Of a stretch of 64,000 bases of DNA, positions 5,391-49,793 are shown one piece after another. Position 1 is the stretch's first letter, and the number at the start of each line of letters is the position of its first letter. Under the pieces are notes generated by a model. That model did not search any database, was not told where the DNA came from, and worked only from the letters and a program-made list of their open reading frames with translations. Position numbers and translations under genes: made by a program. The stretch is taken from assembly GCA_043797125.1 (NCBI GenBank), contig JAZDPX010000032.1, positions 10,425-74,424 of the forward strand, read 5' to 3'. Source of the stretch: Candidatus Omnitrophota bacterium (lineage in GTDB: Bacteria; Omnitrophota; Gorgyraeia; JABMRG01; JAFGKX01).

Positions 5391-5404
5391 AGTTATCCAC
5401 AACC

Positions 5405-5430: not shown

Positions 5431-5489
5431 CGAAAATTGCAGGAGCTGGTGGTTAAGTTTAAGCGAATTTAAAAGATAAGGAGCCCGAT

Positions 5490-12117: not shown

Positions 12118-12128
12118 GCCTGCGCTAC
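12103..12128. repeat. CTTAAG-centred palindrome (type 1) overlapping a stop codon
   Basis: gtagcgcaggcttaagcctgcgctac. The stop TAA lies within the central cttaag. Confidence 0.85.
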
Positions 12129-12154: not shown

Positions 12155-13150
12155 ATGATTTTTAAGGATGTTTGGGTTTTATTGTTTTTTCCTGTTGCCT
12201 GTGCGCTTTTGTATTTTTTTAAAAGAAGAAGCACAACCTCCGGCATCAGATTTTCTTCCGCAAGATTAGTCAAAGGATATAAACCCACCTTAAAACTTGT
12301 ATTAGCGGACAAATTATTTTACTTGAGGCTTGCCGCGATATTCTTATTTTTTATAGCCCTGGCAAGGCCGCGGATACCGCTGGAAGAAACAAAAGTAGAG
12401 ACAGAAGGCATAAATATCGTTCTGGCAATTGACTCATCAGGCAGCATGCTGGCCGAAGATTTTAAGATAGCCGGCGTACGCCAGAACAGGCTGCAGGTGG
12501 TAAAGGGCGTTGTCCGGGATTTTATTAAGGCAAGAATTTCAGATAAGATAGGCATAGTTGCTTTTGCGGCGCGCGCGTATACCGTATGCCCGCTGACTCT
12601 GGATTATGACTGGCTTATCAGCAATTTGGAAAGGATAGAAATCGGCGCCATTGAAGATGGCACAGCGATAGGCTCCGCTATAAGCTCTTCTTTAAACAGG
12701 CTTAGGGATACACAGGCAAAAAGCAAAATTATTATTCTTTTAACAGACGGGGTCAATAACGCGGGCAAGATTTCCCCTCAAGCCGCGGCGGACGCTGCCA
12801 AAGCGCTTGGAATAAAGATTTATACGATAGGCGCGGGAACCAAGGGCCTGGTGCCGTATCCCGCGAGAAACATGTGGGGCCAGACAGTTTATCAAAATGT
12901 TGAGATAGACATAGATGAAGATATATTAAGAGAAATCGCGCAAAAGACCAACGGCCAATATTTCAGGGCAACAAGCACGGAGGCGCTAAAAGACATCTAT
13001 AAAGAGATAGACTCACTTGAGACAACGCCTATCCAGGAAAGCGGTTTTCAGGAATACAAAGAACTGTTTAGCAAATTTTTGGTTTTTGGATTAGCGCTTT
13101 TGATTTTAGAAATAGTTTTATCTAATACGGTTTTAAGGAAAATACCATAA
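12155..13150 (+). CDS. batA: vWA-domain membrane protein, BatA-like
   Basis: N-terminal TM segment. vWA MIDAS DxSxS (LAIDSSGSM). C-terminal TM segment. Confidence 0.8.
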   Translation: MIFKDVWVLLFFPVACALLYFFKRRSTTSGIRFSSARLVKGYKPTLKLVLADKLFYLRLAAIFLFFIALARPRIPLEETKVETEGINIVLAIDSSGSMLAEDFKIAGVRQNRLQVVKGVVRDFIKARISDKIGIVAFAARAYTVCPLTLDYDWLISNLERIEIGAIEDGTAIGSAISSSLNRLRDTQAKSKIIILLTDGVNNAGKISPQAAADAAKALGIKIYTIGAGTKGLVPYPARNMWGQTVYQNVEIDIDEDILREIAQKTNGQYFRATSTEALKDIYKEIDSLETTPIQESGFQEYKELFSKFLVFGLALLILEIVLSNTVLRKIP

Positions 13151-14160
13151 TGAGATTCGGGCAGATTGCGTATGCTTTTGGTTTTTGGATAGTCTTAGCC
13201 TTGAGCCTTTTTTTTGTCTGGGCGTTTAAGGAAAAGGCCAAGGCAATGCGCAGGTTTGCCGATCAGGGCTTTTTAAAGGAGCTTGCGGCTACGCTAAACA
13301 GAAAAAGACAGATAATAAAAACAGTAATAATTTTATTAGCTATTTTCTTAAGCGTTCTGGCTTTAATGCGCCCGCAATGGGGATTTAAATGGCAGGAGGT
13401 CAAGCGAAGAGGCCTTGATATACTTATTGCCATAGACACATCTAAAAGCATGCTGGCTACAGACGTAAAACCAAACAGGCTTGAAAGGTCCAAGCTGGCG
13501 GTTAAAGACCTGGTAAAAAAATTAAAAGGCGACAGAATCGGGCTTGTGGCGTTTTCCGGCACGGCATTTTTGCAGTGCCCGCTAACAATAGATTACGGCG
13601 GGTTTTTGCTGGCTTTAAATGATTTAAATACAGGCATAATCCCCAGAGGCGGCACAGCTATATCAAGCGCCATAAAAACAGCCATCGACAGCTACAAGGG
13701 CGGACAGAAAAAATACAAGATACTCGTTATTATTACCGACGGAGAAGACCTTGAGGGCGACGCGGTTAAGGCGGCAGAGGACGCGAAAAAGGAAAATGTA
13801 AAGATTTTCTGCATAGGAATAGGAACCGAAGCAGGCGAGCTTATACAATTGACTGACGAAAACGGCAATAAGTCTTTTTTAAAGGATGAGAACGGCAATG
13901 TCGTAAAATCAAGATTAAACGAGGTTATCTTAAAGAAAATAGCCCTATCAACGGGCGGGGCGTATGTGCATTCAAGCGGCGCTGAATTCGGGCTTGATAT
14001 GATTTACGAGGAAAGGCTCTCCAAGATGGAGAAACAAGAGATAAAAGCAAAGATGAATAAGCTTTTTATCGAGCGCTTTCAGATACCATTGGTTTTTGCG
14101 CTGCTTCTTTTAATCATAGAGCCTTTTATAGGCGACAGAAAGAGGGGGCAGGCTATGTAG
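13150..14160 (+). CDS. batB: vWA-domain membrane protein, BatB-like
   Basis: TM segments, vWA MIDAS IAIDTSKSM. ATG overlaps the batA stop. Confidence 0.8.
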   Translation: MRFGQIAYAFGFWIVLALSLFFVWAFKEKAKAMRRFADQGFLKELAATLNRKRQIIKTVIILLAIFLSVLALMRPQWGFKWQEVKRRGLDILIAIDTSKSMLATDVKPNRLERSKLAVKDLVKKLKGDRIGLVAFSGTAFLQCPLTIDYGGFLLALNDLNTGIIPRGGTAISSAIKTAIDSYKGGQKKYKILVIITDGEDLEGDAVKAAEDAKKENVKIFCIGIGTEAGELIQLTDENGNKSFLKDENGNVVKSRLNEVILKKIALSTGGAYVHSSGAEFGLDMIYEERLSKMEKQEIKAKMNKLFIERFQIPLVFALLLLIIEPFIGDRKRGQAM

Positions 14161-14162
14161 TT

Positions 14163-14178
14163 GTAGCGCAGGCTTAAG
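14163..14178. repeat. Truncated left arm of the type-1 palindrome (GTAGCGCAGGCTTAAG), immediately upstream of a complete type-2 copy
   Basis: gtagcgcaggcttaag followed by taaatgta and then the full palindrome at 14187-14218. Confidence 0.7.
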
Positions 14179-14186
14179 TAAATGTA

Positions 14187-14218
14187 GCCGTAGCGGAGCC
14201 TTAAGGCTCCGCTACGGC
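14187..14218. repeat. CTTAAG-centred palindrome (type 2) GCCGTAGCGGAGCCTTAAGGCTCCGCTACGGC
   Basis: Perfect 32-bp palindrome. Arms differ from type 1 by paired, compensatory substitutions (CAGG/CCTG to GAGC/GCTC). Confidence 0.85.
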
Positions 14219-15105: not shown

Positions 15106-15137
15106 GATGTAGCGCAGGCTTAAGCCTGCGCTACATC
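15106..15137. repeat. CTTAAG-centred palindrome (type 1, extended to a 32-bp perfect palindrome)
   Basis: gatgtagcgcaggcttaagcctgcgctacatc. Confidence 0.85.
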
Positions 15138-17779: not shown

Positions 17780-17873
17780 CTAACTAAGGCCTCAGGGTCC
17801 TGCCCGTCACAAGTTCGGTTTTTGCAATGTTCAGAGCTGTTTAGCAAAGGCCTGTGACAATCCTCGCAGGGAC

Positions 17874-17954: not shown

Positions 17955-18060
17955 GTCGTTCGGCTGGGGCCCCTCCGAAATTCACCTAAAGATAGTAGGT
18001 CAGGCTTAAGCCTGACCTACTATCCAAGGGTTCAGTTTCGGTGTCCCCAGCCTGCACTCC
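17955..18060. repeat. About 105-bp composite imperfect palindrome with a perfect 34-bp CTTAAG-centred core (type 3: GATAGTAGGTCAGGCTTAAGCCTGACCTACTATC, 17991-18024)
   Basis: The flanks cggctggggcccctccgaaattcacc and ggttcagtttcggtgtccccagcctg are imperfect inverted repeats around the perfect core. Lies within the 530-bp non-coding region upstream of the giant gene. Confidence 0.7.
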
Positions 18061-18311: not shown

Positions 18312-21300
18312 ATGTCAAAATTGACACAAAAATTTTTCACCATTATTATCTGCTTAGCCTTTATCGGGCAAAGCACGAATCTGGGTTACTTACCTTCACC
18401 AAACTCATCTAATACGCATACCTTGCGCGGAATGGCGTCGCAATTCGAAATATTACAGGAACTAGAAGAAGAAATGGCAAATGTAATGCCGAAATTTTAC
18501 ACAGCTGAAAATACCGGGCCCTATATGCCATATTATCAGTTGGACAGATCCTTTTTGCAGGGAAAGGTCGGATTTGCAAGGCTTGGATGCGATACGCCTA
18601 TGGATAAAAAGAAACAGAAGGAAATGAAGGATCTGGTTAAAGAGAAAAAAGATATGTCCCTTCTTCTTACCGATGTCAGCCGTATAGCAGACCCTGCCAG
18701 AATAGACTCCGCTATTGAAACTTTAATACACGTTATACGAAACGGCGGCAGGGTAGTGCTGCAGCCCGGCTGGATTGGCAGGCCCGAAGGTAAAATTAAG
18801 GCAGAATTAAGCGTAGTTCCGGTATTTTTGTATATAAGGGACAAGCTTGTAAAAGCAGGAGTAATAAAAGAAGATGAAATGATCCTCTGTCCCACGGATT
18901 TAGAAAAAAGAGAATGCAAAAGCAATTTCCAGAATGTAGGCGTAATTCGGGAGGCTATTAAAACCCATCTTAAAGATTTTAGGAAAGATGGCGAATCGGA
19001 TAAGGATTATAACAAAAGAAAGGGCAAGGTTAAGATATTGTGCCTTGAAAATCCAAGATTCGATAAAGAGTACGATAGCTTTAAATACAAAGATTTTAAG
19101 GATAGCAAAATAGAGGAACCTGCATTTATAAAGATGCTTAAAGAGGAGATTGCTTATGTTGTTTATGATGACTTCAATCATCAGCACAGGCCGCCGGCTG
19201 ATATATCCCTTCTGCCTGAATATGTACCCTCTTTTGTGGGAAAACGACTGGCTGAAGAAATCAGAATGGCTGATATATTATTGGAGATACTTAATAAGAG
19301 AGATAGAAAACCTTTTGCCTTATATCTTGGAGGAAAGAAAATAGAGACAAAGCCAGGCAAGATTTCCAAGGTAACGGTTGCGCTGGAATTAATCAGAAAC
19401 GATATGATGCGCAAGGATGACAGGCTTCTCATAGGCGGCGGTGTTGCGTATGCCTTTTTGGTTGCCCAGAAATATATAGATAGAATCATAACAGGCTTCG
19501 TAGATGACCCCGATAAAATAATCAGCCAGGAGGCTGTAAAGAAAATTACTCGCGGTGAAATAAGTGATGTTATCGGAGATTCATATATCTCGGATGACCC
19601 GTTTGATACAGAAGAGGGTTTAAAACAGGCGCATGAGAGAATTTATACTTTCGCGCAGCTTTTGGTTGAGGCAGCGAAAAGAGGCATTAAGGTCGGGCTG
19701 CCAATAGATCACAAAGTCAGAAACAACAAAACCGGGCAAATAAAAGAATGTACAGGTAATATTGAACGTGGCTGGTATGGTATTGACATTGGTTCCAAAA
19801 CTCGAGAAATGTATAACGGTGCCAGAAAAGGCATAAGCGCAGGTTTGATTGCAGGGCCTATGGGTATAGCTGATGACCCCGACCTTCCCGAAGGCACAGA
19901 AGGCACAGACATAGTCCTTAATGGCCTTGCGGAAGAGACGAGGGATAACGGCGCCTATACATTAAGCGGCGGAGGCGAGACAACGTTCAGGGCAATGGAG
20001 ATTAAAGTATTGCTTTCATGGCTTTCCTTAGGAGGCGGCGCTTTGCTGGAATATATTCAGAAAAATCGCGAGCTGCATGGCCTGCTTGCGCTAAAGAGAT
20101 CAGCGGAGAAATTTGCCGAGGGGAGGGTGTTAGCAGTTTCTGATGCGAAATCAGTGGAAGACACCATTCAGCAGATTAGGCCCTTATATGAGTCGCTGAA
20201 TAAGATAAGAATAGCCATGCCTTCCAATAAAATACAATATAAAATATGGGCGTTAATCAACTATTTCAGAAAAAAGATAGCTACGTTAACAGGCGCTCCG
20301 TGGAAGATACCTATTACTGCGGGGAACTGGAAAGAGAATATAGGAGAAGAAGAAGATGCAAAAAAATTGATTAAAGAAATGATATATGACCTTCGTTTCA
20401 TAGAAGGGGTTATACCTTTTATATGTCCAACAGCTGCGCATTTAAAAATTGCCGCAGAAGCCATAAAAGAAATGGAAGACAAGGGAATTATAGCAAAAGG
20501 AAAATTCACTCTCGGAGCCCAGGATGTGAGCGCCTATGGGGATAAAGAAATGAGCCCCTATTATAAGGATATAAGAGAGCAGTCAGGCAGAACGCATATA
20601 AAAACTATAATAAATGCAGGCAAAGGATATGTTAAATTTATTATTGTAGGCCATTCCGAGACATGCAGGACTCCTGTAGGGGTGGGCGACGAAGAGGGAG
20701 GCGCTGTGCCGGCCGGGCCAGCTTACGATCCTTTATGTGATTACGATGTGAATAACAAGGCGAAATTAACATTAAAATACGGCCTTACTCCAGATATATG
20801 CATAGGCGAAAGTTACGCGGAAAGAAACGCGGAAAAACTATATCCAACTGCTGACGCAAGAAAGGCCTTTCTTTTAAGACGCGGCATAACAGATGATACC
20901 GGAGAACCGGCATGGAAGCAGATTTTAAGACGCCAGATTCAGAGGAGGTTTTTAGGCCCGGATCCCGACGGTGCGATTACTACTAAGATTACCAAGGAAG
21001 ATATTTTACAAAAAGGCATCTATCTTTCCTACGAACCTATCCACTTTATAAGTTTTGGCAACGTAAACGCGGTCGTGGATATGAAGATTGTCGAAGAAGC
21101 CAACAGATTTATCACCTCGGAGATACTCAAGTTGTATGATAACGATAAAGACATAAAGGATAAGATACAGACCGAGGTAATAAAATACGGCGGCAGCGCC
21201 AATGAAACAAACGGCGAAGAGATAATCTCTACTATTTTCACCATAGGCACCATAGCGGGTGGAGCGAGCAGAACTTCAGCCAGATACCTGGGCCTTAACG

Positions 21301-24300
21301 TGGCATTCGGCGGCTGGATGATTCCCCAAAACGCAATTTTAGAAATCGAAGCGGAGCTTAAGCAATTGCGCAAGGCGCTTAAATCTACGCCGGCTGATTC
21401 AAAAGATGCGTCTTTGGCCTTAGAAGGGCAAATAAACCTGCTTAAGGAATTAAAACAGATAGTGCTTGAGATTATGAAAAAGCAAGGTATAGCTATACCG
21501 GCGCCAAGGATACCGACCGAGCAAGAGATGGCCATATATCTGCAGCTTAAAAAGGTAAAAGCTGTTACAGACGCTCAAGCGCAGTATGCCGGAGCTTATA
21601 TTCCAATAATTGATATGGTAAGACAATTTTATAAAAAGGCAGAAAAGACAGTAATAGATAAAAAGAAAGGGATAGAAGCGCTTGCTAAATATAAAAGTGT
21701 TTCATACAAAGACGTAGACAGCATAGAAGATGATAGCGTAGTTATATTCTGCAATCCGGAAAAAGATATGTTTACGGCGAGATTATGGTCATTCGCTTCG
21801 TACAAGAACGACTATTATAAAGATTATAAAGATTACACAATCTACATAATAGGCCATGCGGATGAGTTCGAGGCTGCGATAGCGGCGGAAGAGGCGAAAA
21901 AGCAGGCGAAAGAGGATGCGAAAAAGACTGAAACTGATACAACAAAAACGAACAACTATAATGCTACTGAAAGTGGCCATGTTGATAATATGCCTGATTT
22001 AACGGGCTTTGGCCGTAACGTGCAGATGCCATACACGCCTTCAGAGGCGGAGATGAACCTGTATATTGCGGCTGTAAAGGTACAAAACGTTACTAATGTA
22101 AAGGGCGTTCAAGTTAAAAGAGGCGATGCCTTTGCAGAAGTATATAGTGACGAGGCCACCAGGTTAGAGGGCGAGGCAAAAAGCTTTGTTAAGAAACAAG
22201 ACCTCAAGAAATACAAGCGTATTTCATATAAGAACAGAAAAGAGATACCTGACGGATCATTGGTTCTATTACCTGCTAAAGATGCAGGAAGGGACGGATA
22301 CAGGGTGACTATATGGTCTGCAAAGAAATACAATAAGGGGGTTTACTCTGGGGAGTTGTATAAATACTTCACCTCCTCCACCGCTTATATAATAGGCCAC
22401 AGAGATGACTTTGAAGTTCTCATAACGGAGTCGCCAAAAAAATATGCTGAGTTATTAACTATGCAGTCTGGATGGGGTGACAAGTGGACCGAGTATTACC
22501 ATATAGTAGCTATAGATAAAGCAATCGAGGACTATACAAAAGAGTTGAATACAAGGGAACGCGACTTGTTAACACCGGAAGGCATATACGAAGAGTATTG
22601 CAAGGTATTAGACGGGGCAGACAGCGCAGAGTTATACAAGATGGCATGGGAATTCGCGTTACGGAAAGATTTTAAGAGCTTATCAACAATATCTGATATA
22701 AAGCAAGTAGCGCCCGGGGACATAATTATTATTACCGATACCAATCCAAAACAGAAAAGTGTCATTAATGTAATTGTGTATGACCCGCAAGAGCATGACT
22801 TAATTGTATCTGCCGCGATTTCCGATTTTAAGAAAGCCGAGGTGCGCTACATAGGCAATAAAAATATGTTTGAAGATAAAATATCTGTAACAGCAAAAGA
22901 CGTATTAAAAGTATATCTGGAGTTTAATAAAAGCGTGACTAACAATGATAAGTTTTTTAAAACCCACGGCATCAGGAGTACAATTGTTGAAAAGTTTGTG
23001 CGTTCCGGCAATTTTAAAAAGCTGCCTGTTGTCAAAAATCAAGACTATCTGCACTCGGGGTCGCTGTTTATTGCCGCTAAAACACAATGGGATAAGCAAT
23101 TAAGCGGGGATGTTCGCCTTATATTTGTAAGCGCTGGCAAGAGACATGCAATAGAGTATGGAGACTGGTGGAGCGCTGACGGGTCAAAAATCAGCGAGTA
23201 TGAACTCCGCTGCATAGGGCCTATCGCGTTAATAAAGAATGAGTTGGGTGAAAAGGCTGTTTCTAAGTTGAAAGACGAGATCGGCTACATAAAAGTTGAG
23301 TTAAAGAGACGGGAAAAACTAAAGAAAGAGATGACGGGAAAAAAGACGACTGTTTCTTCCGAGAAATCCCTTACCTGGCAAATTCCAAAAATTACTCCGA
23401 AAGATATACAAACTGTGTATGATGAGTACGTCAAAAAATATGATAGATGGTACCCATGGTCTATAGACCCGAAACGCCCGGATAATATTCCCGGATATGG
23501 GCTATTTTTAGAAGAAAAGGATATTCGCCCCCTAATAAATCCAAAGGGCATATGGGCGCTACGCAAAGTTATAGATAAAATAGCGGAAGAGGCTAAGATA
23601 GAAGGGAAAAAAATTGACTTAACAACGCACCCTGACGACCGCTTGTATCACAACAAGCTAGTCGAAATATGCCGGTGGACGCGTGTCGATTTAGGTAATG
23701 CGCTGGATATGATGCTTAAGGAACCAAACCGTCTGGGCTATGTGCTTACAAGCAAAGAAGACGCAATATCAAATTGCTTATATATTTCCAGTCTTACTGC
23801 TTATGAGTCTCTCGACAGCGAACAACAGAAGCGTTACAGAGATGGACTAGGGGGATGGCGCAATAAAACATTGCATCAACTAGCTGATGAGCGTATTGCC
23901 ACAGGAGAGGAAATTGCCAGTATGGACCTAACGCAATTCAAGAAGTATAAGTTCCGTCAAATACTGGTACAAACAGAGGATAAAAAGACGAAAGAAAAGA
24001 CGCAAGGACCCAATTACGACGTTACCGAACTTGCAAAAGGAAAAGTTGATGAGTTTACACCAGGAGAAGGTGCCATTCCTGGTGTTATGGTTGGCGCAAA
24101 TAATGCCCTCCAGACGGCCTTAGATATTATTAATACACCATCTTCCACCACGGACGAGAAGCAAATTGAAGAGTATGCAAAATCATTAGATAAGGCTGAA
24201 GAATCGCTTGACAAGGCAATAAATGCAACAAATTTGAAGGATGATTTTAGCGGTTTTAAGGCAATTGCTGCAGAAGGCACAGGCCTGCCTACGGGCACCA

Positions 24301-24959
24301 TAGATGAAGCCAAGGAGCAGTGGCAATACAGCACGAACATTCTACACGCGGTAAAAGGAATAAGTGCTGCAACAAGAATAAGAGGCCTGGAAGACGCAAA
24401 TCAGGATATTATTAAGCCGTTTACCATGTTTATAGATAAAACAGCGCCTTACCAGAAGCAACTTGAATGGGCAAAAGAGCTGGGTGTGTTTGATGTTGCA
24501 AAAGAGAAGTTCGGATGCCAGACAATAGAATTCGATCCTGCAAAAGATAAGATAGACGAATTATTAAAGCAAGCAAACGTCAGCAAAGACATGGCAATGT
24601 TTATCTCGCAGCCTAAATATAAAGAAAAACTTGAAAGAGCTGAAATTAAATCCATAATTATAGACAAATTCGAGCAGGGTATGTTCATAGATTTTATGAC
24701 CCTGGCAGGTTTTTCAAAGGTAATGCTCTATCTGGCCAAATATGGTGAGAATCAGGAATATAAGGACATTAAATCCAATTTATGGAATCTTGCCCAGCTG
24801 TTGTATAGGTCCTTAACTGGCGAGAGTGCGGTGCTTGAAAAGGATAGTATAACCAGTTTTGCAATTAATTTACCCTTGCCTGAACCCAAGGCTTTACTAC
24901 CAGACGAGAAGTTGAGAGAGCTGATTAAGATATCCGCGGAAACAGCAGGCAAGGCGTAA
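18312..24959 (+). CDS. Giant (2215 aa) protein: N-terminal signal-peptide-like segment, complete phosphoglycerate kinase-like domain, complete triosephosphate isomerase-like domain, about 1200-aa K/E-rich C-terminal region of unknown function with internal repeats
   Basis: PGK motifs: ETLIHVIRNGGRVVLQPGWIGRPEG...SVVPVFLYIRDKL (cf. SHLGRP...LKDKL), KILCLENPRFDKE (LENxRF), AYVVYDDFNHQHRPPAD (DAFGTAHRA), FALYLGGKKIETK, LLIGGGVAYAFLVAQ (GGGMAxTFL), GIDIGSKT...GLIAGPMGIAD...GTEGTDIVLNG...TLSGGGETTFRAMEIK...LGGGALLEY. TIM motifs: ITAGNWKEN, FTLGAQDVSAYGDKEMSPYYKDIREQSG...FIIVGHSETCR, ICIGESYAERNAEK, SYEPIHFISFG, VIKYGGSANETNGEEI, IAGGASRTSA. The C-terminal half has a duplicated module (...TIYIIGHADEFE / ...AYIIGHRDDFE). 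Confidence 0.85.
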   Translation: MSKLTQKFFTIIICLAFIGQSTNLGYLPSPNSSNTHTLRGMASQFEILQELEEEMANVMPKFYTAENTGPYMPYYQLDRSFLQGKVGFARLGCDTPMDKKKQKEMKDLVKEKKDMSLLLTDVSRIADPARIDSAIETLIHVIRNGGRVVLQPGWIGRPEGKIKAELSVVPVFLYIRDKLVKAGVIKEDEMILCPTDLEKRECKSNFQNVGVIREAIKTHLKDFRKDGESDKDYNKRKGKVKILCLENPRFDKEYDSFKYKDFKDSKIEEPAFIKMLKEEIAYVVYDDFNHQHRPPADISLLPEYVPSFVGKRLAEEIRMADILLEILNKRDRKPFALYLGGKKIETKPGKISKVTVALELIRNDMMRKDDRLLIGGGVAYAFLVAQKYIDRIITGFVDDPDKIISQEAVKKITRGEISDVIGDSYISDDPFDTEEGLKQAHERIYTFAQLLVEAAKRGIKVGLPIDHKVRNNKTGQIKECTGNIERGWYGIDIGSKTREMYNGARKGISAGLIAGPMGIADDPDLPEGTEGTDIVLNGLAEETRDNGAYTLSGGGETTFRAMEIKVLLSWLSLGGGALLEYIQKNRELHGLLALKRSAEKFAEGRVLAVSDAKSVEDTIQQIRPLYESLNKIRIAMPSNKIQYKIWALINYFRKKIATLTGAPWKIPITAGNWKENIGEEEDAKKLIKEMIYDLRFIEGVIPFICPTAAHLKIAAEAIKEMEDKGIIAKGKFTLGAQDVSAYGDKEMSPYYKDIREQSGRTHIKTIINAGKGYVKFIIVGHSETCRTPVGVGDEEGGAVPAGPAYDPLCDYDVNNKAKLTLKYGLTPDICIGESYAERNAEKLYPTADARKAFLLRRGITDDTGEPAWKQILRRQIQRRFLGPDPDGAITTKITKEDILQKGIYLSYEPIHFISFGNVNAVVDMKIVEEANRFITSEILKLYDNDKDIKDKIQTEVIKYGGSANETNGEEIISTIFTIGTIAGGASRTSARYLGLNVAFGGWMIPQNAILEIEAELKQLRKALKSTPADSKDASLALEGQINLLKELKQIVLEIMKKQGIAIPAPRIPTEQEMAIYLQLKKVKAVTDAQAQYAGAYIPIIDMVRQFYKKAEKTVIDKKKGIEALAKYKSVSYKDVDSIEDDSVVIFCNPEKDMFTARLWSFASYKNDYYKDYKDYTIYIIGHADEFEAAIAAEEAKKQAKEDAKKTETDTTKTNNYNATESGHVDNMPDLTGFGRNVQMPYTPSEAEMNLYIAAVKVQNVTNVKGVQVKRGDAFAEVYSDEATRLEGEAKSFVKKQDLKKYKRISYKNRKEIPDGSLVLLPAKDAGRDGYRVTIWSAKKYNKGVYSGELYKYFTSSTAYIIGHRDDFEVLITESPKKYAELLTMQSGWGDKWTEYYHIVAIDKAIEDYTKELNTRERDLLTPEGIYEEYCKVLDGADSAELYKMAWEFALRKDFKSLSTISDIKQVAPGDIIIITDTNPKQKSVINVIVYDPQEHDLIVSAAISDFKKAEVRYIGNKNMFEDKISVTAKDVLKVYLEFNKSVTNNDKFFKTHGIRSTIVEKFVRSGNFKKLPVVKNQDYLHSGSLFIAAKTQWDKQLSGDVRLIFVSAGKRHAIEYGDWWSADGSKISEYELRCIGPIALIKNELGEKAVSKLKDEIGYIKVELKRREKLKKEMTGKKTTVSSEKSLTWQIPKITPKDIQTVYDEYVKKYDRWYPWSIDPKRPDNIPGYGLFLEEKDIRPLINPKGIWALRKVIDKIAEEAKIEGKKIDLTTHPDDRLYHNKLVEICRWTRVDLGNALDMMLKEPNRLGYVLTSKEDAISNCLYISSLTAYESLDSEQQKRYRDGLGGWRNKTLHQLADERIATGEEIASMDLTQFKKYKFRQILVQTEDKKTKEKTQGPNYDVTELAKGKVDEFTPGEGAIPGVMVGANNALQTALDIINTPSSTTDEKQIEEYAKSLDKAEESLDKAINATNLKDDFSGFKAIAAEGTGLPTGTIDEAKEQWQYSTNILHAVKGISAATRIRGLEDANQDIIKPFTMFIDKTAPYQKQLEWAKELGVFDVAKEKFGCQTIEFDPAKDKIDELLKQANVSKDMAMFISQPKYKEKLERAEIKSIIIDKFEQGMFIDFMTLAGFSKVMLYLAKYGENQEYKDIKSNLWNLAQLLYRSLTGESAVLEKDSITSFAINLPLPEPKALLPDEKLRELIKISAETAGKA

Positions 24960-25091: not shown

Positions 25092-27815
25092 ATGCCGAGT
25101 TTACCTAAAAAAGCAGTAACTGTCCTTATTGCCGCTATTTTCATCGCGCAAAGCGCAAATCTGAATTACCTTTCCGCTCAAACCCAATTAAACACGAACG
25201 CATTGCGGGCCATGTCCATGGCTATTGAGCTTGATCCAAACAAGGCTATTATAGAAAAAGTAAAAGAATACTACGCTGAAAAAGGCATAAATGCCGATGA
25301 TTATTATGTTCCGCCCATAGTAGGCAAAGATATATTTGGAAAAGAGCTGACCATAAATAAAGGCGATATAGTTATCCATGCTAACCATCGCGCAGACAGA
25401 GTTTTTGAAAGCTTATTTTCCCTTACAGATCCTGATTTTAATAAAGACAGCCAAAGGTTTGATACCCCTGATTTGGGCTTGCATGTCGTCGCCTTTGCTA
25501 ACCACGATTCAAAATATTTCGCTAAGCATGGCATAGAAGCTGCTTTTACCATCAACGAAGAAGACTACAGGCCTTCATACGATTCCTTGGTGGATGTCTT
25601 GTATGAAAATAATATCAAGCAGGGGTATTTTACAGAAACAGATAAGGGTAAACATGTAAGTTATTTTTTAGCAGGCCAGCGTAATCTTCCTTATGAGGAT
25701 ATGGGGATACACGTGGAAATCGTTGCTTCTCAATCAGTATCTGATAAGGAAAAAGACCCTAATATGCAGTATAAGGAAATAACATCAAACGCCATTAACT
25801 TTTTACAGAATAACAGCTCTGATGAGCCTGCTTTTATTTTGGTAAATTATCCTGTCGATATCCAAGGCCACAATATTAAATGTAATAAGCAAAGAGCTAT
25901 TGATACAATATCAGCCTGCGATAGGGAAGCTGAAAAACTATATAATGCGGTAAAAGAAATGGGCGGTGTATGGATAGATACATCCGACCACGGCAACGTT
26001 GAAGAGTTAGCTGTTTTGGATAAAAATGGCATGCCTGTAACGGATAAATACGGCAATATCCCTTATGACCAGCATACTGCTAATTCTGTTCATTGCATAA
26101 TAGACGGTTTAGGAAATGTTAATCTTAAAGATGGCAAGGGCCTGGCCAATATCGCCCCCACCGTCCTTGAAATTTTAGGAATTGATAAGCCGAAGGATAT
26201 GGAAGAAAGCCTGCTTAAAGATTATAAATACAAAAAGATAAAAGGCCCTGTTGTGGTTGTTGTGCGCGACGGCTGGGGTAAAAGCAAGTTTACTAACCCT
26301 GAGGCATTGGAATGGAATGGATTAGAACTGGCTAAACCCGCCTTTTTTAACCGGCTTAAAGAAACCGCCCCCATTACTTGGATTAAGGCGCACGGAAGCG
26401 CTGTTGGCCTGCCTGATTATCAGGAGGGCGATTCTGATAACGGCCATCGCACCATAGGGGCAGGAAAGATACTGCCGACATTATATAAATTAATTATAGA
26501 CCAAATAGAATCAGGCGATTTTTATAAAAACGAAGTTCTGCGCAATATCTTTAAAAAAGCCATAGAAGAAAAGCACGATATATGCGTGATGGGCCTTGAT
26601 TCCGACGGAGGAATACACTGCGATCATAAGTATTTTCTTGCTTTAATAGAAATGGCAAGGTGTTTTGACATTAAAAAGCATGGCATAAAGCTGAAGCTTT
26701 TTCCGATTTTAGACGGAAGAGACAGGATGACCAGAATATATGAACAAAGCGGAGCTTACTATCTTGAGGATTTAGACAGAAAGATAAAAGAAGCGGGTCT
26801 TGCAGGCGCTGCATATATAGCTCAAACTGTCGGAAGATATATGGCAATGGACAGAGACGCTGTAAACGCTGATAAGGAAAGAGAACGCCTTGAGCAGAAA
26901 TTATCCGATGCCTTAAAACCGGATGATCCCGCGAATAAAGCTGACAATATTGTGAAATTAGTATCAGGTATTACAGCATCTGTGACTAAGGAAATTGCAA
27001 AAACAGAAAAAGAGCTGGCCAAGGCAAAAGACGCGCCAAAACAGGCATTTTTTAACAGCATAATTAATTGTTTGAATGCCATTGGGCAGCTTAATGAGAA
27101 ATTTAATCTTGAAAACGCGAAAGGCAAAAATAGGAATAATGAGAAAATAATTGAATTAGGAAAGAAAATAGCTGAAAACAAAAGACAGGAGTGGCTTATC
27201 CGCGCTAGCGCATTATGGCAGGAGCGTTACAAGGTAGCTTACGATGCCTGGGTTTATGGGAGCAAAGCTCCTCAAATGAAGTTCATGGAAGCCGCCGCGC
27301 ACAAAGATGAGCCTTTGAGCGAGACGGTTGATTATTCAGAACCGCAGCCTGCAGATAAAAAGGGTGTATGTGTACAATACAGCTATGTTCTGCATTTAAG
27401 AAATAAGTTAAAAAAACATTTTGATACAACAACAACTTCAACTCTAACAGCTGCGGAACTAACATTAGAGGAAATAATAGTGGAATGTGTTAAAAATGAA
27501 GTATTTTATGCTTCAAACCCATTATTTATTAAAGATTCTGAATCTATAAAAGCTGATGGGGTTTATTTTTCAAGCCGTGCATTTAGGAGTAGAAAGTCAA
27601 TCACGGAACAAAATAAGCTCTGCAAGGATATATATATTCTTACGGGTGCGGGAATGGCCGATGTTGAGTCAGTAGCAAGATGGCAGTACCTGTTTGTAGG
27701 TAACCTGGATGAGAAAATATTAAAAAATGGATTCTCTGATAATCCAGGCGCAGAGAAAGTCTATCCTAATGATTCGCAGAAGCTGCTGGACATCGCAATT
27801 CTTGCGGCTGCGTAA
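25092..27815 (+). CDS. 907-aa protein: signal-peptide-like N-terminus with motif shared with the giant protein, circularly permuted 2,3-bisphosphoglycerate-independent phosphoglycerate mutase (GpmI-like) domain, about 200-aa unknown C-terminus
   Basis: C-terminal-half GpmI motifs come first: DIVIHANHRADR (FMNFRADR), FILVNYPVDIQGHN (ICNYPNGDMVGHTG), WIDTSDHGNVEEL (ITADHGNAE), LANIAPTVLEILGI (DIAPTMLSLMG). N-terminal-half motifs come second: VVVVVRDGWG (VLVILDGYG), AHGSAVGLPDYQEGDSDNGHRTIGAGKI (GLPDRQMGNSEVGHxNLGAGR), VMGLDSDGGIHCDHKYF (GLLSAGGVHSH), ILDGRDR (FLDGRDT), GRYMAMDRD (GRYYAMDRD). Confidence 0.85.
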   Translation: MPSLPKKAVTVLIAAIFIAQSANLNYLSAQTQLNTNALRAMSMAIELDPNKAIIEKVKEYYAEKGINADDYYVPPIVGKDIFGKELTINKGDIVIHANHRADRVFESLFSLTDPDFNKDSQRFDTPDLGLHVVAFANHDSKYFAKHGIEAAFTINEEDYRPSYDSLVDVLYENNIKQGYFTETDKGKHVSYFLAGQRNLPYEDMGIHVEIVASQSVSDKEKDPNMQYKEITSNAINFLQNNSSDEPAFILVNYPVDIQGHNIKCNKQRAIDTISACDREAEKLYNAVKEMGGVWIDTSDHGNVEELAVLDKNGMPVTDKYGNIPYDQHTANSVHCIIDGLGNVNLKDGKGLANIAPTVLEILGIDKPKDMEESLLKDYKYKKIKGPVVVVVRDGWGKSKFTNPEALEWNGLELAKPAFFNRLKETAPITWIKAHGSAVGLPDYQEGDSDNGHRTIGAGKILPTLYKLIIDQIESGDFYKNEVLRNIFKKAIEEKHDICVMGLDSDGGIHCDHKYFLALIEMARCFDIKKHGIKLKLFPILDGRDRMTRIYEQSGAYYLEDLDRKIKEAGLAGAAYIAQTVGRYMAMDRDAVNADKERERLEQKLSDALKPDDPANKADNIVKLVSGITASVTKEIAKTEKELAKAKDAPKQAFFNSIINCLNAIGQLNEKFNLENAKGKNRNNEKIIELGKKIAENKRQEWLIRASALWQERYKVAYDAWVYGSKAPQMKFMEAAAHKDEPLSETVDYSEPQPADKKGVCVQYSYVLHLRNKLKKHFDTTTTSTLTAAELTLEEIIVECVKNEVFYASNPLFIKDSESIKADGVYFSSRAFRSRKSITEQNKLCKDIYILTGAGMADVESVARWQYLFVGNLDEKILKNGFSDNPGAEKVYPNDSQKLLDIAILAAA

Positions 27816-27826
27816 GAAGAGTGTAA

Positions 27827-27860
27827 AGCCGTAGCGGAGCCTTAAGGCTCCGCTACGGCT
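27827..27860. repeat. CTTAAG-centred palindrome (type 2, 34-bp perfect) plus an adjacent small hairpin cttgccggctggcaag; apparent insertion into a 3' motif that is uninterrupted at 62989-63015
   Basis: agccgtagcggagccttaaggctccgctacggct, flanked by gtgtaaag on the left and gcgttaagtgtaaagt on the right. Confidence 0.8.
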
Positions 27861-27973
27861 TGCCGGCTGGCAAGCGTTAAGTGTAAAGTAACAGCGTAGG
27901 ATATTTGATGTAAAGATAGCCGTAACTATTACAAATAACGTTGCGGCTATTTTAATATGAAGGATTTAATTTT

Positions 27974-29368
27974 GTGACTAAATTTTTTAGAAGGACAATC
28001 GCGGTTATTATTATCGCCGGCTTAGGCGCAGGCCAGGCGAGCGCCGACGCGCTCAGGCCTTCTGCCTTCGTGAATGGGCCTGAAAAAACAGCGCAAGAAC
28101 AGGCCTTCGAAAACCTTAAAAAGGCTTTTGATTTAAAAGGCGCGATAACCAAAGCTTTACTTGCCGAAGCGATAAATGAATTAGAGGATATATTTAATAG
28201 CCGCAGCCAAAGCGCGCGGGATACAATAGTAAACAATATTGCATATCCGTTTTTCGAAAGAGAAAAAGCCTCCCCCGGCAAAACCGCTTCGGAAACCCCG
28301 ATAAAGAAAGATCTGCTGGATAAAATTAAAGTTTTCGGGATAGATGTTATTCCTACGGGGGACGTTACTTTCATGTGGAAGGAGACAGCAAAAAATGGGC
28401 CTTTGGAATTAACAAACGTAATATATAATTCCGGCGGCGGCTCTGTGAACATAGCGAAGGTGTTCGCGAATTTTAATGAATATTTCGGCCTTATGTCTTT
28501 TGCGGGCAGAGGCAGATTCCATAAGAGATGGCGCCAAGATTTTGAAAGCGAGCACGTCATAAATTTCAGGTTTTTTACAGAGCAGCTTCACCGCAAGATA
28601 AATATTTATAATATTGTCAAGGGCGAAAAACTTCCTGTTCTATGCAGCAGGGGAAATACTATTCCAAGGGTTATAGTTAATGAGTTTTTAAAAATATTCG
28701 AAAAAAAGCTTAAAAAATGCAAAAATGTTAAATTTTTGACACTAAACGCCAGCTCAATGGTGGCGTTTGAAGACGCAGATGCGCTACGGGCATACAAAAA
28801 GATTATAGAAATCGCCCATAAGCATAAAAATAAAATCGAAGTTTTGATAGATTTTTCCTCGACCACAAAGCCGGATGTTATAAAAGCTGTTTTAGAATTA
28901 AATGAGCCAAGGAAGCGGCCTTGCGATATCATCACTCCGAGCCTTGAGCAGTTTATTAAGATATTGGAAAGCACAGGCTTGGCCAAAAAAAACGAGTTAT
29001 CCAGAGATACGCTGACCGACAAAAAAATAGCTACCTATGCCTGGCAGCTGATAAAGGACTATAACCTTTCAGCTGTCTTAATAAAGAGAGATAAGGACGG
29101 TTTGATATTGGTCAGGAACAATTATGAGTTTATGAGAGAAAAAGGGCTTGAGGTTGAAGTAGTATCTGAAATTGCTGCCGGAGACGCCGCTGCCGCCGGG
29201 CTTTTAATCGCTTTATCTGAAGGCAAAAGCTGGCAAGAAGCCATTAAGACGGCGGATTTATTTGGCGCCGCAACGGTTATTTTGCCCGCTACCGAGGTGG
29301 TTACCCCTGAAGCGCTTGATTTTGTCAAAAAAGAACAAATCCTGCAGAATATCTCCCAAGCGGCGTAA
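27974..29368 (+). CDS. PfkB-family (ribokinase/phosphofructokinase-B superfamily) carbohydrate kinase with N-terminal signal peptide; GTG start
   Basis: Signal MTKFFRRTIAVIIIAGLGAGQASADA. PfkB N-terminal glycine motif NSGGGSVNIAKVFANF. C-terminal ATP-site motif EIAAGDAAAAGLLIAL (cf. GAGDxFxGGFL). Confidence 0.75.
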   Translation: MTKFFRRTIAVIIIAGLGAGQASADALRPSAFVNGPEKTAQEQAFENLKKAFDLKGAITKALLAEAINELEDIFNSRSQSARDTIVNNIAYPFFEREKASPGKTASETPIKKDLLDKIKVFGIDVIPTGDVTFMWKETAKNGPLELTNVIYNSGGGSVNIAKVFANFNEYFGLMSFAGRGRFHKRWRQDFESEHVINFRFFTEQLHRKINIYNIVKGEKLPVLCSRGNTIPRVIVNEFLKIFEKKLKKCKNVKFLTLNASSMVAFEDADALRAYKKIIEIAHKHKNKIEVLIDFSSTTKPDVIKAVLELNEPRKRPCDIITPSLEQFIKILESTGLAKKNELSRDTLTDKKIATYAWQLIKDYNLSAVLIKRDKDGLILVRNNYEFMREKGLEVEVVSEIAAGDAAAAGLLIALSEGKSWQEAIKTADLFGAATVILPATEVVTPEALDFVKKEQILQNISQAA

Positions 29369-29969: not shown

Positions 29970-30199
29970 GCGAAGAAAAACCAAAAGAAGAAAAACCCAC
30001 AGCCCAAAGCTTAGAGCCCAAAGCTCAAAGCCCACAGCCCATCGTTGTTGGTGCCGGCCAAAAGAAGGTAAAAAAGATCAACAAGATGACTATGAAGGAA
30101 TTAGACAAGACCCTGGAAGATGTGCAGCAGAAGATGGGCAACCTGAAATCAAAATATGCCTTAGAGCTTCTTAAAAGAAAACGGGAACTTGCCGGATAG
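29966..30199 (+). CDS. Small K/E-rich hypothetical protein (77 aa) with predicted coiled-coil C-terminus
   Basis: RBS AGGAGG 11 nt upstream of the ATG, which overlaps the flavoprotein stop. Contains the DNA repeat aagcccaaagc...aagcccacagccca that is also found inside hisH. Confidence 0.45.
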   Translation: MSEEKPKEEKPTAQSLEPKAQSPQPIVVGAGQKKVKKINKMTMKELDKTLEDVQQKMGNLKSKYALELLKRKRELAG

Positions 30200-32146: not shown

Positions 32147-32176
32147 CCGTAGCGGAGCCTTAAGGCTCCGCTACGG
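32147..32176. repeat. CTTAAG-centred palindrome (type 2)
   Basis: ccgtagcggagccttaaggctccgctacgg, directly after the polX stop. Confidence 0.85.
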
Positions 32177-32188
32177 TTGTGGATTATA

Positions 32189-34960
32189 ATGAATAACAAA
32201 AACCATGATGTTATTGTAATCGGCGCGGGCCACGCAGGCTGCGAAGCTGCTTTGGCAAGTGCGCGCATGGGATGTCTCACCCTTATTATTACATTCAGCA
32301 AGGAGAAAATAGGATACATGTCCTGCAATCCGGCCATAGGCGGCTTGGGCAAGGGGCAGCTTGTCAAGGAAATCGATTCACTTGGCGGTGAAATGGCGCG
32401 CGCTACGGATTCCTGCGCAATACAATTCAGGATGTTGAATACCTCAAGAGGCGCTGCTGTGCGCTCATCGCGCGCGCAGGTTGACAGAAAAAGGTATTCT
32501 TTATATATGCAGAAGCAGCTGGCAAGCGAAAAAGGCCTCCAGATACTTGAGGATGAGGTTATAGGGTTAACGGTTAAAGGTGCGGTTGTTACAGGCGTAG
32601 AGCTTGCCGACGGAAATAAAATAAACGCCAAGGCAGTAATAGTAACTCCGGGCACATTTTTAAACGGTTTGATACACATTGGCATGAAAAGCTTTGAGGG
32701 CGGTAGGATAGAGGATAAAAAATCAAGCAAGCAGCTATCAGATTACTTAAAAGCCTTAGGGTTCAATATCCTGCGCTTTAAAACAGGCACATGCGCGCGT
32801 TTAGATGGCAAGACAATAGATTTTTCAAAGATGCAGCCTCAAATAGGTGACGAACCTCCTAAGCCTTTCTCCTTAAGCACGAAAAAACTTGATATTAACC
32901 AGGTTCCGTGTTATATTACTTATTCTAATAATAGGACACACGAGATTATTCTCAAAAATCTTGACCGCTCACCCCTATTTAGTGGAAAGATTACAGGCAC
33001 AGGCGTTCGCTACTGCCCTTCTTTTGAAGACAAGGTAGTTAAATTTCCTCATCACGATAGGCACCAGATATTTATTGAACCCGAAGGCAAGGATAGCGAT
33101 GAATTCTATCCTAACGGGCTTTCGACAAGTTTGCCGGAAGACGTTCAGATGGAGTTTATACATTCTATTCCCGGCTTGGAAAACGCCAAAGCCAACCGTT
33201 TAGGTTACGGGATAGAGCACGACGCAGTAGACCCGACGGCACTTTACCCTACTTTAGAAACAAAGCTCATTGAAAATTTGTATTTAGCCGGCCAGATTAA
33301 CGGCACAACAGGCTATGAAGAGGCAGCTGCTCAAGGCCTGATAGCAGGCATAAACGCCTCGTTAAAAGTAAAAAATAAACAGCCTTTGATTTTGGACCGT
33401 TCAAGCAGCTATATCGGAGTTTTAATAGACGATCTTACAACTAAAGGTACAAATGAGCCTTATCGCATGCTTACATCGAGAGTCGAATACAGGCTGCTTT
33501 TGCGCGAGGATAACGCTGATGCGCGTTTGCGTAAAATCGGTTTTGAGTTGGGCCTTGTAAGCGAGGCTGAATTGAAGGATACCGAGGAAAAGCAGAAAAA
33601 TATCGCGCAGGGAATAAAATATTTGGAAGAGCACAGCACATCCGTCGACGGCGAAAAGATCAATCTTTGCCAGTTTTTGAAGAGGCCGCAGGTAAGCATA
33701 GAAGGCATAAAGGAAAGTATACCCTTTGATTATTCCGCCGATGTACTTAAAGGCATTGAGATTGAAGTTAAATATTCAGGCTTCATCAAAAGGCAGTCCG
33801 CGCAGATAAGAAGCTTTAAAAATCTTGAGAAGATAAAAATACCCGCTAATTTAGATTACGTTAATATGAGCGCGCTTTCGCTTGAGACAAAAGAAAAGCT
33901 TTCCAAATTTAAGCCTGTGAATTTAGGCCAGGCGAGCAGGATATCGGGGATTACTCCGGCAGCGATAAGCGTGTTAATGATATACCTGAAGAAAGAGGGG
34001 ACGGTTCACTCCCAAGCGTGGAAAGTGTCCCCAAAGCACAGAAGTGGGGGTAAGGGGACACTTCCCAATCTTGGGAGTGAACCGTCCCCATATCGTAAAT
34101 TTTCACAATATTTAAAAGACAAATTCGGATGCAAAGTTTATAAAGTAAGCGTTGACGCGGGATTTGACTGTCCTAACCGCGACGGAAAGTTAAGCAAGGC
34201 AGGATGTATATTTTGCGATAATAAGGCGTTTAGTTTTAACAGCCGTTTTAGTCAAAAGCCGCTTAAAAAACAGATAGAAGACGGTATAGCGTTCGGTAAA
34301 AACAGGTACGCGGCAGAAAAATTCATAATATATTTTCAAGCTAATACAAACACATACGCGCCGGTTTGTGTTCTTAAGGAAAAATACGACACAGTTAAAG
34401 AATTCGGCGATATAGCAGGTATAAGCATAGGCACTAGGCCTGATTGCGTTAATGATGAGATTTTAGATTTAATAGCAAGCTATGCGTCAGATTACGATGT
34501 GTGGGTTGAGTATGGTTTGCAGAGCATACATAAAAAATCTTTGGAATTTTTAAACAGAAACCATTCTTACGAAGATTTTTTGGACGCTGTTCGAAAAGCA
34601 AAAAAAAGAAACATTAAGATATGCGCGCATGTGATTATAGGCCTTCCCAACGAAACGAAAGATGAAATTTTACAGACAGCAAAGGAGCTGGCGCGTCTTA
34701 AAATAGACGGCGTAAAAATTCATCCTCTTTATATTGTAAAGGGAACAAGCCTTGAAGCGCTTTTTAGAAGCAGTGTGTATAAACCGCTGGAATTAGATGA
34801 GTTTGTAAATCTGGCAGCGGCATTTTTGGAGAATCTTTCGCCGGACACCGTGGTCCAGCGAATAGGCGCTGATTGCCCTCCGGAAATGCTTGTTGAGCCG
34901 TCGTGGATACTTGAAAAGGAAAGAGTTCTTAACATGTTGGATGAAAAGCTAAGGAGTTAA
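32189..34960 (+). CDS. mnmG: tRNA uridine-5-carboxymethylaminomethyl modification enzyme MnmG (GidA), fused in one reading frame to a TIGR01212-type radical SAM domain
   Basis: MnmG: DVIVIGAGHAGCEAA, ...GITPAAISVLMIYLKK (canonical C-terminus). Frame then continues through a 93-bp palindrome into KFGCKVYKVSVDAGFDCPNRDGKLSKAGCIFC (TIGR01212 radical SAM signature). No in-frame ATG/GTG/TTG is available for an independent radical SAM start near the junction. Confidence 0.7.
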   Translation: MNNKNHDVIVIGAGHAGCEAALASARMGCLTLIITFSKEKIGYMSCNPAIGGLGKGQLVKEIDSLGGEMARATDSCAIQFRMLNTSRGAAVRSSRAQVDRKRYSLYMQKQLASEKGLQILEDEVIGLTVKGAVVTGVELADGNKINAKAVIVTPGTFLNGLIHIGMKSFEGGRIEDKKSSKQLSDYLKALGFNILRFKTGTCARLDGKTIDFSKMQPQIGDEPPKPFSLSTKKLDINQVPCYITYSNNRTHEIILKNLDRSPLFSGKITGTGVRYCPSFEDKVVKFPHHDRHQIFIEPEGKDSDEFYPNGLSTSLPEDVQMEFIHSIPGLENAKANRLGYGIEHDAVDPTALYPTLETKLIENLYLAGQINGTTGYEEAAAQGLIAGINASLKVKNKQPLILDRSSSYIGVLIDDLTTKGTNEPYRMLTSRVEYRLLLREDNADARLRKIGFELGLVSEAELKDTEEKQKNIAQGIKYLEEHSTSVDGEKINLCQFLKRPQVSIEGIKESIPFDYSADVLKGIEIEVKYSGFIKRQSAQIRSFKNLEKIKIPANLDYVNMSALSLETKEKLSKFKPVNLGQASRISGITPAAISVLMIYLKKEGTVHSQAWKVSPKHRSGGKGTLPNLGSEPSPYRKFSQYLKDKFGCKVYKVSVDAGFDCPNRDGKLSKAGCIFCDNKAFSFNSRFSQKPLKKQIEDGIAFGKNRYAAEKFIIYFQANTNTYAPVCVLKEKYDTVKEFGDIAGISIGTRPDCVNDEILDLIASYASDYDVWVEYGLQSIHKKSLEFLNRNHSYEDFLDAVRKAKKRNIKICAHVIIGLPNETKDEILQTAKELARLKIDGVKIHPLYIVKGTSLEALFRSSVYKPLELDEFVNLAAAFLENLSPDTVVQRIGADCPPEMLVEPSWILEKERVLNMLDEKLRS
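33997..34089. repeat. 93-bp nested palindrome (20-bp perfect outer arms and about 12-bp inner arms) lying in-frame at the MnmG/radical-SAM junction
   Basis: ggggacggttcactcccaag ... ggaaagtgtcccc ... ggggacacttcc ... cttgggagtgaaccgtcccc. 93 bp = 31 codons with no stop. Confidence 0.8.
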
Positions 34961-49742: not shown

Positions 49743-49771
49743 CTTAGCAGGCCTTAAGGCCTGCTAAGTCA
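49740..49771. repeat. CTTAAG-centred palindrome (type 4, 32-bp perfect) TGACTTAGCAGGCCTTAAGGCCTGCTAAGTCA, beginning in the ANTAR gene stop codon
   Basis: Perfect palindrome. Arms differ again from types 1-3 by compensatory changes while retaining CTTAAG. Confidence 0.85.
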
Positions 49772-49793
49772 TTCCCGCGGAAGCGGGGATCTA

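Follow-up and report, generated by a model that had tools for sequence, protein, structure and literature searches.

The question raised by this stretch of DNA (the window, 64 kb in all) concerns a perfect palindrome, centred on CTTAAG, that lies just beyond the stop codon of an iPGM-like gene: the sequences on its two sides are found again, without it, after the stop codon of gltB. Are these two places a filled and an empty site of one mobile element, and if so, in which direction did the change go? A preliminary description took the pair as within-genome evidence that such palindromes are insertable units, and took the shared flanks as a recurring 3'-UTR motif. The reading that we favour, with a probability of about 0.6, is that the palindromes are REP elements and that the two loci are paralogous segments that differ by a real indel, the direction of the event being left open.

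Shared flanks at the iPGM-like and gltB loci

The iPGM-like gene, whose product is 907 amino acids long, ends with the TAA at 27813–27815. As read from the sequence, there follow GAAGAGTGTAAAG (27816–27828), the palindrome, a hairpin CTTGCCGGCTGGCAAG (27859–27874) on its 3' side, and CGTTAAGTGTAAAGT (27875–27889). The stop codon of gltB (TAA, 62984–62986) is followed by AAGAAGTGTAAAG (62987–62999) and then directly by CGTTAAGTGTAAAGT (63000–63014) and GTAAAG; stop codon and junction are 13 nt apart at both loci. Pairwise alignment of the two loci missed this register, which was given by exact-match analysis. The left common flank, AGTGTAAAGC, is an exact 10-mer (27820–27829, plus strand, and 62991–63000) that consists of a heptamer unit AGTGTAA plus AGC, and the right common flank, AAGCGTTAAGTGTAAAGT, is an exact 18-mer (27872–27889, plus strand, and 62997–63014). 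The claim that the flanks are the same and in the same order is thus borne out, and at 10 + 18 exact nucleotides the likeness is not limited to the 8-mer that might have pointed to a coincidence. The string GTGTAAAG occurs five times in the 64-kb window, all five at these two loci, as against a mean of 1.3 in shuffled sequences, none of 100 of which attains five. Exact repeats of at least 15 nt number about 4.7 pairs in first-order Markov shuffles, from which the expectation for an 18-mer pair is extrapolated as roughly 0.07. Because such a pair is already rare and a second, abutting 10-mer is required in addition, chance is very unlikely, and the likeness of the flanks is real and non-random.

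Relative to the gltB-gltD spacer, the iPGM-like locus has an additional 46 nt (27830–27875, plus strand), which can also be phased as 27826–27871 or 27827–27872; AAGC is present at both edges (27826–27829 and 27872–27875), and this 4-nt microhomology allows five possible registers. The block contains the 30-nt perfect palindrome (REP type B, below) and an unrelated 16-nt hairpin. This small second hairpin, GCTTGCCGGCTGGCAAGC (27858–27875, plus strand; 7-bp stem, GGCT loop), folds at −8.7 kcal/mol, occurs once in the 64-kb window and is absent from 86 fetched loci of other genomes. The insert had been described as an about 50-bp palindrome plus a small hairpin; both are indeed there, but the block measures 46 nt and its edges are ambiguous over 4 nt. 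Nor does the palindrome alone make up the difference: the indel exceeds the REP unit by 14–16 nt, which form the separate hairpin, are missing from the other two copies of REP B and occur nowhere else in the window or the 86 fetched loci. In one register the block begins exactly with the unit common to the REP B copies (AG-CCGTAG...), at the heptamer boundary AGTGTAA^AGCGTTA; its right edge does not coincide with a REP boundary. A possible 10-nt duplication around the heptamer and REP block (CTGCGTAAGA at 27808–27817 versus CAGCGTAGGA at 27892–27901) matches at eight of ten positions and was rejected as too weak.

CTTAAG palindromes of the window

Eight perfect CTTAAG-centred palindromes of four sequence types, plus one half copy, are present in the 64 kb: three copies and the half copy of type A, three of type B, and one each of types C and D. 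All eight are intergenic or overlap stop codons, and apart from C, every copy overlaps a stop codon or is 0–15 nt away from one. Their arms are perfect over 13–18 bp, and the tag is GTAG in types A, B and C and TTAG in type D. No strand is assigned to any of them. Type A (GTAGCGCAGGCTTAAGCCTGCGCTAC) is found at 5405–5430, with GTTATCCACA on its left, at 12103–12128, where the TAA at its centre serves as stop codon to the open reading frame (ORF) 11560–12117, and at 15106–15137, where it has a GAT/ATC palindromic extension. Type B (CCGTAGCGGAGCCTTAAGGCTCCGCTACGG) is a 30-nt perfect palindrome with three exact copies in the window, at 14188–14217 (preceded by the half copy of type A, 14163–14178), at 27829–27858 after the iPGM-like gene, and at 32147–32176, 6 nt past a stop codon and followed by TTGTGGATTAT. 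Type C (GATAGTAGGTCAGGCTTAAGCCTGACCTACTATC) lies at 17991–18024, and the REP-like type D (AATGACTTAGCAGGCCTTAAGGCCTGCTAAGTCATT) at 49738–49773, where it overlaps with the TGA that ends ORF 49020–49742.

Individual REP copies bear palindromic extensions of their own. The type B palindrome at 27829 extends in this way, through AAG/CTT, to 36 nt with 18-bp arms (27826–27861), and this 36-mer folds as single-stranded DNA at −21.2 kcal/mol (z = −8.5). The unit common to the three B copies is 32 nt long, AG plus the 30-mer (27827–27858 in this copy), and their right flanks are unrelated.

Other identities were considered for the palindromes. An intrinsic (Rho-independent) terminator was rejected, as the iPGM palindrome is followed by CTTGCC with no T-run and a scan of 27600–28200 gave no terminator-like site. 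Pairs of the DNA-uptake-sequence type were rejected because the half-sites GTAGCGCAGG and GTAGCGGAGC occur in the 64-kb window only within the palindromes and in one truncated copy. A REPIN was rejected as well, since the copies are single gap-free palindromes and, at the one place where two are adjacent (14163 and 14188), a half copy and a full copy stand head to tail. With regard to the footprint of a MITE or transposon, the 4-nt repeat AAGC bounds the iPGM indel, and the other copies have no common short duplication. An Rfam search of the palindromes returned nothing above noise.

Two details of the type A copies may be recorded here. ORF 11560–12117 receives its ...VAQA* tail from REP A, and the same REP-encoded VAQA* ends the RAYT ORFs (below) of loci L007, L019 and L080. 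At 14155–14217 the half REP A (GTAGCGCAGGCTTAAG), 9 nt and the full REP B follow one another, and ATGTAG precedes each of the two repeats, which makes an imperfect tandem repeat of 24 nt; ORF 13150–14160 has its stop codon within the first ATGTAG.

Related palindromes and RAYT genes in other genomes

When one genome of each species was scanned with the core GTAGNNSAGSCTTAAGSCTSNNCTAC (GTAG-N6-CTTAAG-N6-CTAC), at least 82 loci in at least six phyla were found, where by our estimate about one chance match is expected; the source genome is not among the matches listed. Those listed include Omnitrophota, Anaerolineae/Chloroflexota, Planctomycetia, Acidobacteriota, Spirochaetes and Xenorhabdus, and among them the variable N positions of the core are mostly complementary between the arms. 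The centre CTTAAG is invariant, apart from TTTAAA in L087 and L088.

All ORFs of the fetched loci were clustered to find palindrome-associated proteins. One family, of 160–215 amino acids, abuts the palindrome or sits between two palindromes in seven of the 82 matches listed (L007, L010, L019, L046, L070, L072 and L080). These palindrome-adjoining ORFs have an HUH motif and match Pfam Y1_Tnp, and the three that were tested score 116.6, 80.8 and 130.9 bits with NCBIfam NF047646 (REP-associated tyrosine transposase, RAYT), whose cut-off is 80. In L080, which is from Omnitrophota, the exact type A REP of the window stands on both sides of the RAYT gene. The 64-kb window itself has no RAYT gene by tblastn. 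Since RAYT genes elsewhere are flanked by the same palindromes, and since the copies are dispersed, we assign the palindromes to the REP elements of the GTAG super-family (PMC3733652); that they are GTAG-tagged REP elements is very probable. REPs themselves are well known, but the strand-symmetric family found here in little-studied phyla is previously undescribed.

In three Omnitrophota genomes the RAYT homologues occupy the same position upstream of spoVG, and this conserved position fits the behaviour of a single-copy, vertically inherited RAYT (PMC8266576). The units there have the order REP-RAYT-REP (L080 2390–3100, L087 4690–5640 and L088 5420–6560), and a conserved segment of about 45–55 nt (...GTGAACGAAAA-N-GTCGTCTTGTAGGGTGAGGGG) flanks them on both sides; this duplicated segment looks like the spoVG promoter or leader.

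Presence and absence of a larger unit can be seen between two 85% identical Anaerolineales-like genomes, where a 671-nt segment with REP and RAYT is present in L019 (3962–4635) and absent from L055 (6961–6986). L055 keeps one hybrid-looking REP, which would be consistent with recombination between two REPs that deleted the transposase gene. A smaller difference was seen between L012 and L068 (Acidobacteriota, 91% identical), a 62-nt indel with a conventional one-sided GTAG REP, CTGGACAGGCGAAAGCCTGTCCTAC.

Many copies have an outer arm. CCACA or TGTGG lies within 11 nt of 19 of the 93 copies among the loci listed (background 0.5%), and of the 27 perfect TTATCCACA strings among the sequences analysed, 15 lie directly against a REP. 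A DnaA-box-like (A)GTTATCCACA is found at a distance of 2–5 nt from the REP, to one side of it or to both, at 5391–5404 and 32177–32189 of the window and at many other loci (for example L010, L036 and L075), and together with the REP such strings give palindromes of up to 52 nt. The outer (A)GTTATCCACA arm, with its apparent likeness to a DnaA box, may belong to the periphery of the element, or may serve in cleavage or as a guide.

Comparison with known repeat families

The palindromes share much with the GTAG-tagged REPs and REPtrons (Di Nocera et al. 2013, PMC3733652), among them the REP/BIME elements of E. coli with their TnpA-REP (PMC3479197, PMC8266576). They are short and GC-rich, are dispersed in many copies mostly just downstream of ORFs, have a conserved GTAG, sometimes supply the stop codon of the gene before them and flank a RAYT gene; this gene is single-copy and keeps a conserved locus, the stems of the sub-families differ from one another by complementary changes, and the REPs are joined with other short motifs into mosaics. 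On the other hand, the tag of the 24 described GTAG families stands at one end and is unpaired, whereas here GTAG stands at both ends, can pair with CTAC and encloses a perfect 13–18-bp stem around CTTAAG, and many copies have in addition the outer CCACA / TTATCCACA arm. The described families are mainly from Proteobacteria; the hosts here are Omnitrophota, Planctomycetia and Chloroflexota. Two small intergenic repeats of other sequence are also dispersed in the window, GGCCTC..GGTCCTG..GTTCGGTTTTTGCAATG at 17788–17830 and 53848–53890, and ATCTTTTGCGTGCTTGCTTTCGCTTGTCGCTCGCAAAAA at 49793–49831 and 53913–53951 (90% identical); they are variously combined at three sites, in a BIME-like mosaic of small modules.

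The REPINs of Pseudomonas (Bertels and Rainey 2011, PMC3116915) are similar in that they are non-autonomous, form long hairpins and presumably owe their copying to a RAYT that is single-copy and vertically inherited, but they consist of two inverted REPs and a spacer, whereas the elements here are single gap-free palindromes and mostly singletons. With the IS200/IS605 elements (e.g. IS608) they have in common an HUH/Y1 transposase that recognises hairpins in single-stranded DNA and whose cleavage site is set by four guide nucleotides at the hairpin's base. The IS200/IS605 elements, however, carry their transposase between two different hairpins and insert 3' of a fixed tetra- or pentanucleotide without target duplication, and the repeats here are 26–36 nt long and have no gene.

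REPs are abundant, and the mechanism by which they are disseminated has been stated to be unresolved (PMC8266576). The window adds to them the undescribed strand-symmetric family with a RAYT at a conserved locus, together with a few sites that allow the target sequence to be reconstructed. For annotation, the family accounts for the perfect palindromes that follow many genes and for the VAQA* tail of ORFs whose last codons lie inside them.

The heptamer repeat and the gltB-gltD spacer

The putative empty site is the whole of the spacer between gltB and gltD (62987–63037, plus strand), 51 nt of degenerate heptamer tandem repeat with the units AGTGTAA AGCGTTA AGTGTAA AGTGTAA AGTTAA AGGATAA AGGAAAA, followed directly by ATG. 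It holds the ribosome-binding region of gltD and is without secondary structure (−0.3 kcal/mol). The iPGM flank corresponds to the first three and a half of these units, and the 46-nt block lies inside the second. The heptamer motif, which has AGTGTAAAG as its left and CGTTAAGTGTAAAGT as its right part, can hardly be called a recurring 3'-UTR motif: it has two copies in the 64-kb window, those of the two loci discussed, with no further copy there either with or without an insert, and the REP-bearing loci of other genomes, 608 kb in all, did not contain it. Moreover, the gltB copy is not a 3'-UTR, but an intra-operon spacer just upstream of the gltD start. A scan of the JGI metagenomes for the motif with a gap of 0–30 nt gave a sole match, L086, an 83-copy AGTGTAA satellite without credible ORFs. 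This satellite contains the identical 27-nt string, the variant unit AGCGTTA included; as a related copy of the motif it was rejected, the match being judged a chance one in a repeat-rich contig without credible genes. Perfect heptamer tandem repeats of other sequence are present in the window within predicted ORFs, (AGCCCAC)n at 44938–44961 and (GACCATC)n at 45585–45605, and a AAAGCCCACAGCCC repeat related to these lies at 29992–30039.

At the orthologous junction of two Omnitrophota relatives (L009 and L092) gltB and gltD overlap (ATGGGTGA), and two other relatives have unrelated spacers of 18 nt and 91 nt. Because the relatives either overlap or carry unrelated spacers, the spacer of the source genome is a lineage-specific, derived addition and not a conserved 3'-UTR signal. 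The "empty" copy is therefore no old resident motif. The end of gltB (GACGGATAA) and the start of gltD (ATGGGAGAT) have the look of the ancestral overlap in two copies that have diverged.

Long duplications around the palindromes

The type A REP at 5405 lies between direct repeats of 39 nt (5351–5389 and 5440–5478) that are 92% identical. The first is the 3' end, with the stop codon, of ORF 4761–5390, and the second, a non-coding stretch, leads into the ribosome-binding site of the following gene. Similar cases are L048 (29 nt) and L053 (24 nt, with the start of a gene duplicated). Among the loci listed, such long duplications (24–39 nt) were found at three of 89 REP sites, compared with none of 599 cross-pair and two of 546 same-locus controls. 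The duplicated piece is each time the end or the start of a gene, and both neighbouring ORFs stay intact. When the insert and one copy of the repeat are removed from 5351–5478, a tight gene-to-gene junction (...AAAAGATAAGGAGCCCGATATG) results. The REP at 5405 thus looks, to judge by these repeats, like an insertion with a long target duplication, and the region gives a clearer reconstruction of an empty site than does the iPGM/gltB pair.

It is conceivable that the REPs of the strand-symmetric clade are in general installed by a copy-in process that duplicates 24–39 nt of the target, so regenerating the end or start of the gene, and that brings with it a variable donor flank; in that case the iPGM/gltB pair and the split overlap of gltB and gltD would each capture a moment of this process. 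We regard this as a speculative and rather unlikely generalisation. If it were true, these loci would be natural before-and-after sites for the mechanism of REP dissemination.

Gain or loss of the 46-nt block

If the block was gained, the iPGM 3' flank and the gltB-gltD spacer would be paralogous copies of one heptamer segment (AGTGTAA AGCGTTA AGTGTAA AGT), and the one indel by which they differ, REP B plus the small hairpin, would have arisen at the iPGM site. Either strand of the palindrome, when single-stranded, would present GTAG at its 5' end and then a stem with a TTAA loop. By analogy with the RAYTs that have been studied, a partner RAYT (an HUH/Y1 enzyme of the IS200/IS605 superfamily), guided by GTAG, would nick and rejoin single-stranded DNA at CT or CA beside the hairpin. 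In this way the REP may have moved, along with 14 nt of its donor flank, to the boundary AGTGTAA^AGCGTTA. The dinucleotide AG stands immediately 5' of all three B copies, that is, CT stands 3' of the REP on the other strand, and with three copies only this would fit the reported RAYT cleavage site (PMC8266576). Gain is favoured by the left edge of the indel, which can be phased to the REP B unit, and by the heptamer array, which is continuous at gltB and interrupted at the iPGM site. What speaks against a clean REP insertion is the size of the difference, 30–32 nt predicted and 46 nt observed. Gain at the iPGM site is slightly favoured over loss at the gltB copy, which is nearly as likely, and we prefer it tentatively, at somewhat below even odds.

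The polarity may also be the reverse: heptamers, REP B and hairpin would have been copied into the gltB/gltD junction, and the 46 nt then lost from there by slipped-strand deletion or by precise excision of the RAYT type. Direct repeats that flank a hairpin are a classic substrate for slipped-strand deletion, and the AAGC repeats at the edges of the indel have two hairpins between them. The position of the right edge, off the REP boundary, agrees with loss as well. So does the secondary arrival of the heptamer segment at gltB-gltD (the spacer is lineage-specific, since the genes overlap in L009 and L092), in view of the fact that the only other known copy of the segment carries the REP; and the end of gltB and the start of gltD resemble diverged copies of the overlap, like the duplications at 5405, L048 and L053. 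However, the array at gltB is seamless and has no trace of a REP, there is no third copy from which polarity could be taken, and no REP is known to be excised in vivo by an IS200/IS605-type reaction. We consider loss somewhat unlikely.

As far as its edges go, the AAGC-bounded indel would be equally compatible with insertion and with slipped deletion or excision, so that "direct evidence" of insertion was too strong a term. The pair gives no polarity; that CTTAAG palindromes can be inserted holds to the extent that they are dispersed REPs and flank RAYT genes elsewhere. For REPs in general insertion is supported indirectly, by identical copies at unrelated sites, the linkage to RAYT, the presence and absence of the 671-nt segment and the long duplications. 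To read the pair as filled and empty is plausible, and it is a useful lead but no proof: it is a single pair, its indel is more than a palindrome, and the nearest homologues of the flanking genes have 56% (iPGM-like protein) and 76% (GltD) amino-acid identity. Neither the REP nor the motif is present in the 3' flanks of the nearest iPGM-like homologue (56% identical; L083 and L084), which are not syntenic either and are uninformative. More complex histories of the pair take up the probability that gain, loss and coincidence (below) leave over.

It is improbable that the palindromes are instead non-mobile signals (3'-end protectors, attenuators or protein-binding sites) that are kept identical by gene conversion, the two loci differing according to the need of each gene. 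The REPs of E. coli stabilise upstream mRNA and attenuate transcription (reviewed in PMC3733652). The position of all copies but C at or within 0–15 nt of stop codons, and the great stability of the hairpins, would suit such a role, but the tight linkage to RAYT across phyla and the copies inside duplicated target sequence would not; the half-sites are never alone except in the one truncated copy, the T-run is lacking, and structural function and mobility are in any case compatible with each other. Very improbable indeed is a coincidence in which (AGTGTAA)n microsatellites expanded independently at both sites, with no homology and with the palindrome merely adjoining one of them: the repeat is a degenerate heptamer, the L086 satellite has the same 27-nt string and other heptamer repeats lie at 44938 and 45585, but at the two sites the units come in one and the same order, the variant unit second, and at the same 13 nt from a TAA, GTGTAAAG is found nowhere else in the 64 kb, and the expectation of about 0.07 was reached before the left 10-mer was counted.

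Transcripts and neighbouring genes

Whichever way the block came to differ, the REP would form in the transcript a very stable hairpin of 15–18 bp, 13 nt past the stop codon of the iPGM-like gene; the 171-nt region around it has a predicted RNA fold of −67.6 kcal/mol (z = −6.1). By analogy with the E. coli elements, this hairpin could shield the mRNA before it against 3' exonucleases, or it could dampen read-through. Another, separate hairpin, ATAGCCGTAAC ... GTTGCGGCTAT (27916–27953, plus strand), has a 14-bp stem in the RNA fold and is followed by TTTT; the consensus terminator scan skipped it, its loop being larger than 8 nt. On the strength of the predicted fold, it may be a better candidate than the REP for the terminator of the iPGM-like gene.

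Several ORFs of the window are fusions of unusual size. The iPGM-like ORF (25092–27815, 907 amino acids) has a metalloenzyme domain ahead of iPGM_N, and its relatives include other fusions (with methyltransferase, PGM/PMM and HAD domains). The ORF at 18312–24959 encodes 2215 amino acids with PGK and TIM domains, and that at 32177–34960 (927 amino acids) has MnmG fused to a radical-SAM domain.
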